Source of the DNA: a virus
Taxonomy: Duplodnaviria; Caudoviricetes
Length of the DNA: 64,000 nt
Reading direction: 5' to 3' (one strand)
IMG/VR virus record: IMGVR_UViG_3300021091_000011
Shown: positions 54,325 through 57,735 of the stretch, in pieces
How positions within the stretch are numbered: position 1 is the first letter of the stretch
Layout: the number at the start of each line of letters is the position of its first letter
The notes under the pieces: generated by a model
Seen by the model: only the letters and a program-made list of their open reading frames with translations
What the model was told of the DNA's origin: nothing
Database searches by the model: none
Position numbers and translations under genes: made by a program

Positions 54325-57300
54325 TTAGTAAGAAACCCTTATAGAATACCTACCGATATTTTCAATGTAGCGGCTTGCAACCCGATGCGCTTGGGCGCGA
54401 GCTTCACGCCTTATTTTCGTCCTTATGCTGATGTCCTTACTGAATGACTTTGCTTTATTCCACAAAGCGGCCATGATTTTGTGGTACCGCTCCATCGAGT
54501 CTTGAACCCTTTTGAGGTTTTTATTGTCGGTAAACCACTTCTTCTTAGAAGTGATGCTATTCAAGTCGTCGTGCAACTCGCTTCTGGCTTGGTCTAGTTC
54601 AGGGTTGAAACTTGAACCTTCCAACTCGCTGAACCTAAACTGCGCGGTCAATGAACCGAGAACCTGATCACGAATGAACTTGCGGGCTGCGGGTGCTGAG
54701 TAAGACTCGAAAACGGAAGCGGCAATGTCTTTCATAGGGTCTTTTTCAGGCAAAAACTCGGCTAGTTCTTCGTCAGTCAGGTTTGCGTAAGCGGCGGCGG
54801 CTTTCGATGTGAGGTTTTGCAGTTTTTCTGCGTTCGTCTTGCCAACGTCGCTTGAGGTATCGAGAAAGTCTTGCGCCAAGCCCATGCGATCCGCTGCACG
54901 GATGGCGTTCGCCACAACGGGGGATATACCCTCGACCTTCTCGCCAGGAGCAGTCTTGGTGATCTGGTAAATCTTGAGCGCATTGTACGCCGCAGAAGCC
55001 TTAGCGTGGGCGACGCTATTTTCAGGCAGCGAATTGATCTTAGCGTAAAGCCTGTCCGCATGGCTCTTGGCTTCTTCAGCGGGCATCTTACTTTTGACGA
55101 GTTCTTGGTATTTCGATCTAGCGAAACTATCGTCCTCGCGGGCTTGATCTTCGGGGCTGTTGATGCTTGCAGCCCTATCCTCTGGAATCGAGAAACGAGT
55201 CATCGGATCGTTATTCTTGTAGTTCGCCGCGAGCACGGCTGCGTGCTTTGCCGCTTCTTCAGGATTAGTAGACTTACGCTTTTTCGATGCGTCGCTCGAA
55301 AAGTAAGCCTTTGCTTCATCTACTTTTTTGGCGAAAACTTTTTCTTTAGCAGGGTCACTAAGGCTATCCACGGCTTCTTGCGAAGCCGTGACAACGCTAT
55401 CTTTCAATTTCTGACGGAATATCTCTTGAGAGAATGGGGGAAGTGATTTGAGAAACGAGTTGACGGAGCGGTACTCATCGGCATCTGTGAAATCTTCGAA
55501 CAATTTTTCGATTTGGCGTTCAATGGTTTTTGGCGTCTTGTTACCCAACTTTTGTTTTTCAAACAGCAACACGCTTAGAGCGTGGGTTGCCTTTTCGGGG
55601 TCGATGTTCTCGTCATCACTCATCTCTTCGAGTTGCTTTCGGGCAACCGAAAACTCTTCGTTGATTTGCTTTTGGTCGGCATCTTTCAATAATTCATTGA
55701 TAGAAGTGAACTTTTCCGACACATTCTTCATTAGATCCTCACCATCGTCGAAATAATCGACAATGGCGCGAAGCTCATAGCTGAGTGACTTCTTGAATTC
55801 GTCGAATGTCTTTTTGAACTTCGACTCTGGCGACTCCATAGGCTTAGGCTTGGATTCGGTGGCCGGAGCGGGTTCAGGGGACGGTGTAGATTCGGGCTCG
55901 GATTCGGGCTTGCCGATCAGGGGGCTAGGGTCTTTGGGTTCCGCAGCCCCATCCGTTTCGGCGCTAGGTGCGGACTCAGGAGCCGGAACGGACGTCGGCT
56001 CGGTAGTCGGCTTAGAGTCATCCGACTTAGGCTTTTTGGACTTCAACCACTTCTGATACAGGTCTTCGTAGACCTGATACTCTTGCTCTTCGCCCTTATT
56101 GGTCTTACTAGCGAGGGTCTGCAAAAGCACTTCACGTTTCGAGACAGGATTCTTAACCTTATTAGTGCCGTACTGTTTGAGGAACTTGACTCTGTTATCC
56201 TCTTCCTCGGACTTCTTGCCCTTTTGCCTAGCAATCCTGACGGCCAAATGCCTTACGACGACACTCTGGATAAGTGCGGCGTCTTTGTAGTTCTTAGACC
56301 GATCCTTCTTGTCCTGCTTCTCGTCGGAATCATCGCCACCGCGCGTGTCTCGATCCTCGACGTCTCTGCGGCGCAGGTCTTGGCGGGGCGGCTTGAACTT
56401 CGTGTCCTTTTGGATCAGCCGCTTATCCTCGCGCTCTTCCTTTTCGGACTCTTCCAACGTAGCGGTCTTGGTCGTCGCCAAAGCATACTCGACCAATCGC
56501 GCCCAAGCGGGATATCGACGTTGTACGTCACCGTCTATGAAATACGACGCGAAAGAATCCGCGAACGCCTCGCCCATGTTGTTTTGAGCGAAAGGCAACG
56601 GCTCGGCATCGCCCCAAACGTCAACGCCAAGTGGTTCTGCGGCTTTAGTCAAACTGAAGTCGCCCTCTATGACGTGGCCGATTTCATGGGCGAACACGAA
56701 GTCTTTGATGTCGGGGGACAAGTCCCAAAACTTCGGATACAGGTGGATTACGCCGGATTTGACGCTGGCCTCTGGATGGCTACTAGAGCCTGAAACGCCA
56801 AAGACTCGATTGACCTTGGCTTTCGAGTATCGGGCCAACTTGGGGTGCCGACGAAAGAAACCTTGAACCCAAGCCTTCGTCTCGTCATCACCGCCAACAA
56901 GAACAGTCGCCCCCGCTTTCTTATCCAAGCGGTCTGCAACCGTCCCGTCGTGCAGATATGACTCTTCGATCACGGGCGCGAGATACTGCGAACGTAAGGT
57001 CGAAGCCTCATGGCCCACGGCTTCAGCGGCCTGCTCAATGGCTTTCTTGAACTCGTCCTTGAGGATTTTGTCTTTCTCTTTTCGGGCACGGGGTAGTTCC
57101 GGTCCCTCAGACCTGATTTTTTTAAGTGCCGCACGGACTTCATCGTTTGCGTGAAGACCACGCAGGTCTTTCGCCGTGATCCCATACGGCTCAAGGTATT
57201 CGTTCACGTCGCTCGCATTGACGATGCAATCATCGCCGTCACAAAGAATGCGGTCCTCGGGCTTCTTGCCCTTCGTCGCATCTTTGAGTGCGGAGACGAG

Positions 57301-57735
57301 TTTGGCGTCGCTGACGGTTTTGTTGTGCTTGACGCCTGACTTGCCCGTGTAACTAATCTCAGCCTTATTGCCCTTGAACTTGACGTGACGGACTTCCCAC
57401 ACGGTCACGCCGTAGTGCCCATTGTCATCTGCCGAATCGACGTTGCCGACACGCTCGTAAGTATGGTCGATCAAACCGACCGCTAATGCGGTCAGCCGCT
57501 TCATCGGGTCTTTGTCGCCCAATGCCTTTTTGTAGGCATCACGCAAGTCCGGCAACTTGGGCAGGAAATTCTGAATGCGCTCGGCTTTTTCCTTATGCCG
57601 ATTCGCAACTTGGCGTGGGCCGTACTCGTAGATTGTAGTCTCGCCGCCGTCTTGCGACTTGACCTTCTTCTTCTTCTGGTACTTCGCGGCGACCCGCACA
57701 GGGGAGAGGGTCGAGTTAGCGTCGTGCGAGTGCAT
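54325..57735 (-). CDS. DNA topoisomerase IB fused to a zincin-like HExxH module and a long charged C-terminal region
   Basis: YERVGN, TGKSG, KDLR, GH...RSQY catalytic set; FAHEIGH...EAFADSF. Confidence 0.9.
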   Translation of the reverse strand: MHSHDANSTLSPVRVAAKYQKKKKVKSQDGGETTIYEYGPRQVANRHKEKAERIQNFLPKLPDLRDAYKKALGDKDPMKRLTALAVGLIDHTYERVGNVDSADDNGHYGVTVWEVRHVKFKGNKAEISYTGKSGVKHNKTVSDAKLVSALKDATKGKKPEDRILCDGDDCIVNASDVNEYLEPYGITAKDLRGLHANDEVRAALKKIRSEGPELPRARKEKDKILKDEFKKAIEQAAEAVGHEASTLRSQYLAPVIEESYLHDGTVADRLDKKAGATVLVGGDDETKAWVQGFFRRHPKLARYSKAKVNRVFGVSGSSSHPEASVKSGVIHLYPKFWDLSPDIKDFVFAHEIGHVIEGDFSLTKAAEPLGVDVWGDAEPLPFAQNNMGEAFADSFASYFIDGDVQRRYPAWARLVEYALATTKTATLEESEKEEREDKRLIQKDTKFKPPRQDLRRRDVEDRDTRGGDDSDEKQDKKDRSKNYKDAALIQSVVVRHLAVRIARQKGKKSEEEDNRVKFLKQYGTNKVKNPVSKREVLLQTLASKTNKGEEQEYQVYEDLYQKWLKSKKPKSDDSKPTTEPTSVPAPESAPSAETDGAAEPKDPSPLIGKPESEPESTPSPEPAPATESKPKPMESPESKFKKTFDEFKKSLSYELRAIVDYFDDGEDLMKNVSEKFTSINELLKDADQKQINEEFSVARKQLEEMSDDENIDPEKATHALSVLLFEKQKLGNKTPKTIERQIEKLFEDFTDADEYRSVNSFLKSLPPFSQEIFRQKLKDSVVTASQEAVDSLSDPAKEKVFAKKVDEAKAYFSSDASKKRKSTNPEEAAKHAAVLAANYKNNDPMTRFSIPEDRAASINSPEDQAREDDSFARSKYQELVKSKMPAEEAKSHADRLYAKINSLPENSVAHAKASAAYNALKIYQITKTAPGEKVEGISPVVANAIRAADRMGLAQDFLDTSSDVGKTNAEKLQNLTSKAAAAYANLTDEELAEFLPEKDPMKDIAASVFESYSAPAARKFIRDQVLGSLTAQFRFSELEGSSFNPELDQARSELHDDLNSITSKKKWFTDNKNLKRVQDSMERYHKIMAALWNKAKSFSKDISIRTKIRREARAQAHRVASRYIENIGRYSIRVSY

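Follow-up and report, generated by a model that had tools for sequence, protein, structure and literature searches.

A topoisomerase IB polyprotein encoded among the head genes of an uncultured tailed phage as candidate protease-processed capsid cargo

The DNA analysed here, hereafter called the window, is a 64,000-nucleotide (nt) stretch of IMG/VR record IMGVR_UViG_3300021091_000011, which derives from an uncultured tailed phage (Caudoviricetes) of ~204 kb. Positions 54325-57735 on the minus strand hold one uninterrupted open reading frame (ORF) of 1136 amino acids (aa) plus stop, the product of which (P0001) consists, in this order, of a topoisomerase IB (Topo IB) module, a predicted gluzincin cassette, a charged, proline-rich linker, an all-alpha domain and a flexible C-terminus. 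Since five metagenome contigs from separate samples encode exactly this protein, and since the close homologues P0002-P0010 (81-89% identity) have the same layout, P0001 represents a real gene and not an assembly artefact. A first-pass annotation, made from the sequence only, had described the ORF as a Topo IB fused to an HExxH module, with tags at its ends and a charged tail of ~650 aa. The architecture was borne out, but the tail was not, as it comprises a low-complexity linker of ~215 aa (residues 426-640) and an all-alpha domain (residues 641-1100) that is folded in the AlphaFold2 (AF2) model.

The Topo IB module spans residues 13-274 (56914-57699, minus strand), its boundaries being set by the breakpoints of homologues and its identity by a Pfam match, alignments with solved structures and an invariant catalytic pentad. 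Its catalytic core matches PF01028 (Topoisom_I) over residues 46-246 (E-value 1.5e-24; 87.1 bits, with a cut-off of 23.7), and its best solved relatives are TopIB of D. radiodurans (PDB 2f4q; E 2e-10) and the variola enzyme (2h7f; E 7e-4). Alignment with these two enzymes located the pentad at R95, K132, R192, H242 and Y251, all of which are invariant in an alignment of diverse family members (39/39), so that the catalytic set is indeed intact, as had been noticed at first pass. The module starts with a family-wide 'RVAAKY.KKK.V' and ends in '...DGTVADRLDKKA'. The alignments with 2f4q and 2h7f begin only at residues 68-69 of those chains, leaving the region of the N-terminal clamp domain uncovered, and the catalytic domain of P0001 is preceded by no more than a basic hairpin of ~35 aa (RVAAKY.KKK...YEY; RVAAKYQKKKKVKSQDGGETTIYEY), from which it seems that this short hairpin replaces the usual clamp domain. 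Enzymes of the Topo IB family function independently of ATP and Mg2+. The same head module encodes, ~8.5 kb upstream and just beyond the right edge of the window, a second homologue of Topo IB, which is divergent and 487 aa long (L086:26-1489); it went undetected by Pfam, and comparison with the Topo family profile (hhalign) gave a probability of 97.7% (E 2e-12), with the R, K, R, H and Y in register.

Residues 275-425 (56461-56913, minus strand) form the metallopeptidase cassette, which was identified from its own protein family, an AF2 model and fold matches. An exhaustive search of 1.84 billion representative proteins recovered a compact family of 118 clusters, in which the segment is either solitary (140-180 aa) or part of proteins of up to 2570 aa. 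The HEIGH and EAFAD motifs picked out at first pass lie at residues 350-354 and 389-393, respectively, and are kept in at least 86 of 89 members; more precisely, H350, E351, H354 and E389 (i.e. the HExxH motif and a downstream Glu as third zinc ligand) are retained in 86-87 of the 89 that were aligned. The cassette ends in '...ALATTKTA', the last three residues (423-425) being the 'KTA' of the first-pass annotation. The AF2 model, built from the family alignment, has a mean predicted local distance difference test score (pLDDT) of 93.7 and a predicted template modelling score (pTM) of 0.89. Its best fold match (VIA) is the catalytic domain of anthrax lethal factor (1yqy; Z 10.3, 143 aa aligned, root mean square deviation 3.9), followed by the Pro-Pro endopeptidases (Z 7.2-7.8, with PPEP-3 at 7.8; Foldseek gave a TM-score of 0.55 for PPEP-1), while the further VIA matches are nearly all zincins (among them IrrE/PprI, abylysin, Wss1 and ArdC, the latter with Z 5.0). 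No match to Pfam or NCBIfam exceeded the threshold, and the sub-threshold matches were to zincin families only (of the 89 members, M78 in 43, ATLF in 35 and M48 in 22; best E 5e-5 to 3e-3). P0001 itself stays below the cut-offs (given in brackets) with 15.5 bits for ATLF PF07737 (27.4), 13.7 for M78 PF06114 (22) and 15.4 for M48 PF01435 (20.3). Judging from the model, the cassette adopts a metallopeptidase fold of the gluzincin type; its metal site is intact, and it falls outside every curated family.

The linker (residues 426-640; 55816-56460, minus strand) is charged and rich in Pro and Ser: acidic and basic residues each make up 26-28% of its first 78 aa, and Pro accounts for 17% of residues 601-665, a composition that suggests disorder. 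Residues 426-486 constitute a conserved 'TLEESEKEEREDKRL...NYKDA' unit, which in many relatives directly follows the Topo module (after 'DKKA') and which is in the same ORF as Topo in 21 of 58 distinct IMG/VR Topo ORFs. The subsequent all-alpha domain (residues 641-1100; 54436-55815, minus strand) was modelled by AF2 with a pLDDT of 83.6 and a pTM of 0.71, and is confined to the closest relatives (11 close homologues in a word search). It had no match in PDB sequences (profile search), PHROGs or BFVD, and a wide VIA fold search returned generic helical hairpins, the best hit being partial and, with a Z of 9.2, under the noise level for helical models. The remaining residues, 1101-1136 (54328-54435, minus strand), are flexible in the AF2 model (pLDDT ~30) and include the terminal peptide HRVASRYIENIGRYSIRVSY. 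The pattern of the last 20 aa (1117-1136), RVA(S/R)(R/L)Y(I/V).N.G..(F/I)…Y-COOH, is found at the extreme C-terminus of P0002-P0011, P0013, P0015, P0018 and P0019, despite divergence of the sequence preceding it. With an RVA(A/S)(K/R)Y motif at both R14-Y19 and R1118-Y1123, P0001 can be said to be tagged at both ends, as had been claimed.

The junctions between the modules were mapped as BLAST breakpoints of P0001 against 111 homologues. In ~100 of these the Topo module ends at residue 274, in '…DGTV.D+LDKKA', after which unrelated sequence follows (the zincin, the charged unit or other modules); the 'KKA' that had been singled out at first pass is residues 272-274, exactly where these homologues stop being alike. 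The zincin cassette ends in '(T/V)KTA|TL' and follows a 'DKKA|SS', also in P0020, in which a module other than Topo lies upstream. In front of internal Topo modules, the residues before the basic start are very often [KR]-[TVMH]-A (RVAA, KTAE, RTAA, KMAA…). An enrichment of [KR].A[SAG] upstream of the Topo start (37 of 50 sequence windows versus 2.8 expected) was discarded as independent support, 48 of the sites being the Topo module's own conserved 'RVAA'.

The same boundaries are also those at which relatives exchange or lack modules and at which genes are split and fused. In a syntenic relative (L004), separate adjacent genes encode the HAD, PolyA_pol, an 825-aa protein, the Ntn-hydrolase-like protein, Topo (376 aa) and zincin plus tail (1054 aa), the last of which starts with a conserved leader (MP.IFDTLP.KR…) that ends in 'DKTA|GATV' (L004:10001-10075). 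The leader, MP.IFDTLP.KR(L/I)..., is portable and has a K/R-(T/K)-A junction at its end; it forms the N-terminus of at least six protein clusters, the first modules of which differ (P0011, P0013, P0015, P0018, P0019 and P0053, in which the next module is the zincin, an 'ASWMRFKSFFP' module or the charged linker). In P0134, PolyA_pol, Topo IB and zincin are fused in one ORF of 2570 aa, within a similar module in which the subsequent genes match the window head genes in size (…508, 534, 231, 291 aa). Furthermore, unrelated and separately encoded head-module ORFs of related loci, HAD and PolyA_pol genes among them, terminate in (R/K)VA(S/R)(R/L)(Y/W)L with a few residues between it and the stop codon, and where modules are fused the RVAS-type motif is an internal linker ('…RVAS.WL..TA|A…', '…RVA..YLATKS..EKEDREAERL'). 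Fission and fusion at the junctions, together with these portable end motifs, mark the modules as evolutionarily separable units. In P0001, comparison supports A16|A17, A274|G275, A425|T426, A486|A487 and A1120|S1121 as candidate cleavage sites.

Several further observations concern the ends and junctions of such proteins. The Topo gene of L004 (L004:8867-9997; P0228) encodes, after '...LDKKA', a module of ~100 aa (residues 275-376) with a Cys...His signature (GDCYEAAG...FGHAWIE), which occupies the position of the window zincin, has no PHROG match and may be a small cysteine peptidase-like module. Within the window, a 360-aa ORF (30559-31641, minus strand) begins with 'MQYAALPKRVASRYMNSDL', i.e. 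with the RVASRY motif found at the C-terminus of the Topo polyprotein, and the 1370-aa neighbour holds the motif internally ('ARRVASRFVGAAWW', 59293-59310). BLAST pairs revealed a different terminal motif of ~25 aa, '...ALI(K/R)LA(S/A)(S/T)(L/M)PVGS..R(K/R).IL', that is N- or C-terminal in several window ORFs, all on the minus strand (3336-4103, 4141-5706, 40170-41024, 45838-46416 and 46406-46888). The idea that P0001 carries this ~30-aa two-helix tag of the window (the 'LIRLAS..PVGS..R' type) was rejected, as it has no similarity to those ORFs. Other recurrent C-terminal peptides of related head-module polyproteins are 'Y(D/T)F.PW...' and 'KKA..HGF(D/N)LTA', seen at the ends of Topo-bearing ORFs in loci L008, L013, L015, L017, L022 and L072, and L051, L070 and L053.

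The gene of P0001 is separated by 30 nt from the upstream and by 5 nt from the downstream gene, and belongs to a co-directional block that extends from the right edge of the window to 49591 without any gap over 60 nt. The only strong terminator of this block is an intrinsic one at 49527-49564 (minus strand), with a 16-bp stem and a T run, which would end the unit containing the Topo gene, and no sigma-70-like site was found upstream of the P0001 gene, so that the late motif noted there at first pass was not confirmed. On a plain reading of the sequence, the gene is predicted to be co-transcribed with head genes. The block encodes, in order, a polyprotein (58657-62769, minus strand) in which domain matches identify HAD_SAK_1 and, interrupted by an intein, a PolyA_pol/CCA-type enzyme, then an Ntn-hydrolase-like protein, P0001, an acidic scaffold-like protein with repeated 'ESKKKAS' directly downstream of P0001 (53033-54319, minus strand), a 161-aa protein, the prohead (head maturation) protease of 478 aa (51123-52559, minus strand; phrog_18299, 1.5e-14) and a 509-aa protein. 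Beyond the terminator lie a 223-aa gene and then the gene of the major head protein (47929-48804, minus strand; phrog_2522, 8e-51), the capsid protein being 85% identical to that of an uncultured 485-kb phage (LR745208.1), 48% to that of Tunturiibacter phage Tunturi_5 and 38% to gp27 of Bacillus phage G. Modules of the upstream polyprotein are fused to Topo IB in other phages (P0020, P0027, P0034, P0134). The window protease has an internal 'TKKAASIHHAFDLGG'. In L004, the gene at the position of the protease (L004:14957-17671) encodes 904 aa, compared to 478 aa in the window, and gives a weak intein-splicing match, so that it may hold an intein. Two genes further upstream, one of 697 aa in the window and one of 791 aa in L004, were considered as portal candidates, and the searches identified neither as the portal.

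A pattern scan of IMG/VR returned 172 relatives of the Topo module, for which 80 loci were fetched, 60 of them with full 10-kb flanks. More than 110 protein clusters are also related to the module, and the relatives are mostly on contigs of 100-540 kb. In 52 of the 60 loci (on contigs of up to 536 kb), a protease homologue is encoded 2-10 kb downstream of Topo in the same gene order, as it also is in L003, L004 and LR745208.1; the 509-aa gene is present in 47 of these loci, a homologue of the scaffold-like gene in 38 and the capsid gene in 31 (it is often located just past the flank). Because several loci are duplicates from one contig and the phages are related, this synteny signifies long-term retention of position and should not be counted as a multitude of independent events. 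The length of the Topo-bearing ORFs varies between 289 and 2837 codons (median 1164), with a zincin in only two of the 58 distinct ones. Other partners, counted among 112 homologues, are PAP2 in ~16, 2H in six and HAD_SAK_1 in five, and furthermore PolyA_pol (CCA-type), InPase, Ham1, NUDIX, GNAT, ART-PolyVal, LPD1 and LPD3. P0112 carries ART-PolyVal and LPD3 and P0022 carries LPD1 (below the cut-off), while P0001 itself has none of LPD, ART-PolyVal and MPTase-PolyVal. The architecture of P0001 is a rare variant within a large, unpublished family of head-module Topo IB proteins. That such a protein would be unusual in a tailed phage, as was stated at first pass, holds for the literature, in which our searches found no paper on a virion-borne phage Topo IB or on the protein class of P0001, but not for the sequence databases, given the relatives and clusters counted above.

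Of the possible functions, that of a polyvalent-type cargo of the capsid, processed by protease and delivered together with the DNA, seems to us the best supported, and we lean towards it with slightly better than even confidence. Virion delivery of the topoisomerase had already been proposed at first pass; the location in a head operon, the synteny in 52 of 60 loci, the hallmark domains of polyvalent proteins among the relatives and the portable tags all argue for it, although packaging, cleavage, delivery and substrate are matters that we infer from gene context and sequence comparison. P0001 would then be a modular cargo polyprotein of the head-assembly operon, which is produced late, alongside the scaffold-like protein, the prohead protease and the capsid protein, and which enters the prohead, perhaps by means of its helical C-terminal domain and/or terminal peptide. 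There it could undergo cleavage at the K-(K/T)-A and RVA|S junctions that bound its modules. The prohead protease is the most likely cutter, ahead of the zincin, because the junction motifs are family-wide while the zincin accompanies so few of the Topo ORFs. This would release a minimal Topo IB, a small gluzincin peptidase and a helical domain inside the capsid, and the freed modules would enter the next host with the DNA. As no ATP or Mg2+ is needed, the topoisomerase could relax the incoming DNA at once, i.e. it may relieve the torsional stress of a very long genome during ejection and first transcription, like the poxvirus core enzyme, while the zincin may act as an effector or as an auxiliary processing enzyme.

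Several points weigh against this interpretation. The K-x-A after Topo and the 'RVAA' at its start are homologous positions, the recurrence of which is not independent evidence, and the synteny may merely mirror shared descent within one phage clade. The prohead protease is without a match in PDB or Pfam and owes its name to PHROG only, for which reason an assemblin-type Ala|Ser specificity would be no more than an analogy. As only ~35 aa seem to be left of the N-terminal clamp domain of pox and bacterial enzymes, DNA relaxation by the topoisomerase is a prediction. Moreover, stand-alone zincin cassettes occur outside obvious head modules, and so does at least one of the Topo IB proteins: P0097 (753 aa, with a C-terminal Topo IB; L005, a 350-kb contig) is found outside any head module, with an EAD1-domain gene, an Acb5-family gene, a D12 methyltransferase and RNase HII (i.e. 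counter-defence-like and DNA-metabolism genes) as its neighbours.

The strongest alternative is that P0001 is a late cytoplasmic enzyme, which is not packaged but co-expressed with the head genes for genome packaging or late replication, for example for relieving torsion or untangling concatemers as 200-500 kb of DNA are pumped through the portal, with the helical domain as a tether to the outside of the prohead or portal. The operon and synteny data would fit such a packaging-time function equally well, and the second, divergent Topo IB paralogue in the same module suggests a housekeeping need. In addition, the Topo IB of a few jumbo phages (phiRSL1, Lu11, PaBG, Motura and NCTB) has been filed under DNA topology (Iyer et al. 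2021, PMC7824862). What is left unexplained are the variable fusions of Topo to phosphoesterase, NUDIX, ART-PolyVal, LPD and zincin modules, which are typical of injected effectors, as well as the portability of the end tags and the splitting and joining of modules at fixed junctions, and we therefore consider a purely cytoplasmic role unlikely, though deserving of serious weight.

A bolder version of the capsid-cargo interpretation, to which we would give a distinctly low probability, is that Topo IB is the hub of a tag-addressed 'enzyme kit' of a clade of huge phages (with RVAS+(Y/W)L and K-(K/T)-A as tags), cut by the protease and injected, in which its role might exceed DNA relaxation. Through its covalent tyrosyl chemistry it could join or cap the ends of the linear genome on entry. 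Alternatively, its target could be the host nucleoid or, in concert with co-delivered phosphoesterases and the CCA-type enzyme, RNA or ribonucleotide-containing ends. If true, such a kit would be to phages what the core enzyme set is to poxviruses, with an addressing code of its own.

The last of these activities also features in another alternative, in which Topo IB is a tool of a kit for nucleic-acid end processing or RNA repair, where together with neighbouring or fused HAD, PAP2, 2H and CCA-type enzymes it would heal damaged tRNA or ribonucleotide-containing DNA. Type IB enzymes (that of vaccinia) cleave at ribonucleotides, which leads to 2',3'-cyclic phosphate ends, and are capable of strand transfer to 5'-OH RNA. 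The partners among the 112 homologues are mostly phosphoesterases and CCA-type nucleotidyltransferases, and the gene adjacent to that of P0001 encodes the HAD_SAK_1 and CCA-type polyprotein, but the co-occurrence may just reflect a shared status as cargo, no RNA ligase was seen in the module, and the pentad and overall sequence are those of an ordinary DNA-relaxing Topo IB, which together make a repair kit improbable. That the zincin is the main effector (e.g. as a peptidase that, like those of the IrrE/M78 or ArdC type, cuts a defence or repressor protein of the host) and Topo IB mainly serves DNA binding or targeting is very improbable, since, despite the sub-threshold M78/IrrE matches in 43 of 89 cassette members and the ArdC fold match (Z 5.0), the zincin is dispensable (two of 58 Topo ORFs) as opposed to an invariant Topo pentad.

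If P0001 and its relatives are indeed packaged as capsid cargo, huge phages would deliver a cofactor-independent topoisomerase along with their DNA, often accompanied by phosphoesterases, CCA-type enzymes or peptidases, which would be a convergent counterpart of the poxvirus core and a testable answer to the question of how genomes of 200-500 kb are topologically handled and protected when infection has only just begun, within its first minutes. Together, the fixed junctions and portable tags would then constitute a simple addressing and processing code, from which virion cargo could be predicted in metagenomic sequences. If they are not packaged, these proteins nevertheless make up a large group of phage Topo IB enzymes that lacks annotation and has a minimal N-terminal domain.

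In comparison with known systems, the cassette shares HExxH and the downstream Glu with the M34-type gluzincins (anthrax lethal factor and PPEP-1/Zmp1 of C. difficile), from which it differs by its low identity (11-17%), its much smaller size (~140 aa) and invariant motifs of its own (FFRRHPK, PKFW and RYP.W). The Topo IB proteins of cultured jumbo phages (including Xanthomonas phages PhiXhv-12/15/16) likewise belong to large tailed phages, and the 668-aa 'topoisomerase' of PhiXhv-15 is encoded only a few genes from a head-tail connector gene, but they are merely 28-29% identical to P0001 over 168 aa, are annotated as DNA metabolism and lack the fusion to a zincin or tail.

Internal head proteins that are targeted to the capsid are familiar from T4, where the IPs and Alt carry a capsid-targeting sequence. 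In SPN3US and phiKZ-like phages, ejection proteins are processed by the prohead protease (PMC10052503, PMC7411985). In such systems the prohead takes up enzymes and other cargo, which the protease trims at a short consensus and which leave the particle along with the DNA, and the gene of P0001 resembles those of this cargo in sharing an operon with the protease. Among systems studied by experiment, the nearest parallels to P0001 are these ejection proteins, the T4 internal proteins and the poxvirus core topoisomerase. We know of no topoisomerase among the head cargoes of SPN3US, phiKZ or T4. Known consensus sites of prohead proteases end in Glu, whereas the candidate junctions of P0001 end in Ala; the sites of herpesvirus assemblin are Ala|Ser.

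With the poxvirus Topo IB (vaccinia/variola; PDB 2h7f, 3igc), P0001 has the catalytic pentad and the fold family of the catalytic domain in common, but the similarity is weak (E 7e-4), the N-terminal domain is reduced to ~35 aa and the module is embedded in a polyprotein of 1136 aa. The poxvirus enzyme requires neither ATP nor Mg2+, is borne by the particle and is used at the start of infection; its presence in virions is known, whereas that of P0001 is predicted.

A close parallel is provided by the polyvalent proteins of phages and conjugative elements, the phage versions of which have been argued to be packaged in the capsid and released with the DNA, and of which the lethal-factor-like zincin is the commonest hub (Iyer, Burroughs, Anand, de Souza, Aravind 2017, PMC5512222). 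That paper does not include Topo IB among its domains, the term appearing solely in the title of a reference, nor does it describe the K-(K/T)-A junctions and RVAS+(Y/W)L tags of the P0001 family; P0001 moreover has no MuF or portal fusion, and MPTase-PolyVal is absent among the Pfam matches of its zincin, all of which are sub-threshold. Nevertheless, P0001 is likewise a long protein in which unrelated enzymatic modules are joined, including a zincin with a predicted lethal-factor-like fold, and its Topo relatives share the ART-PolyVal, LPD1, LPD3, NUDIX, InPase and 2H domains with the polyvalent proteins. Just as the latter are encoded among the virion genes of portal-terminase phages, P0001 is encoded in the operon of the prohead protease, near the major head protein.

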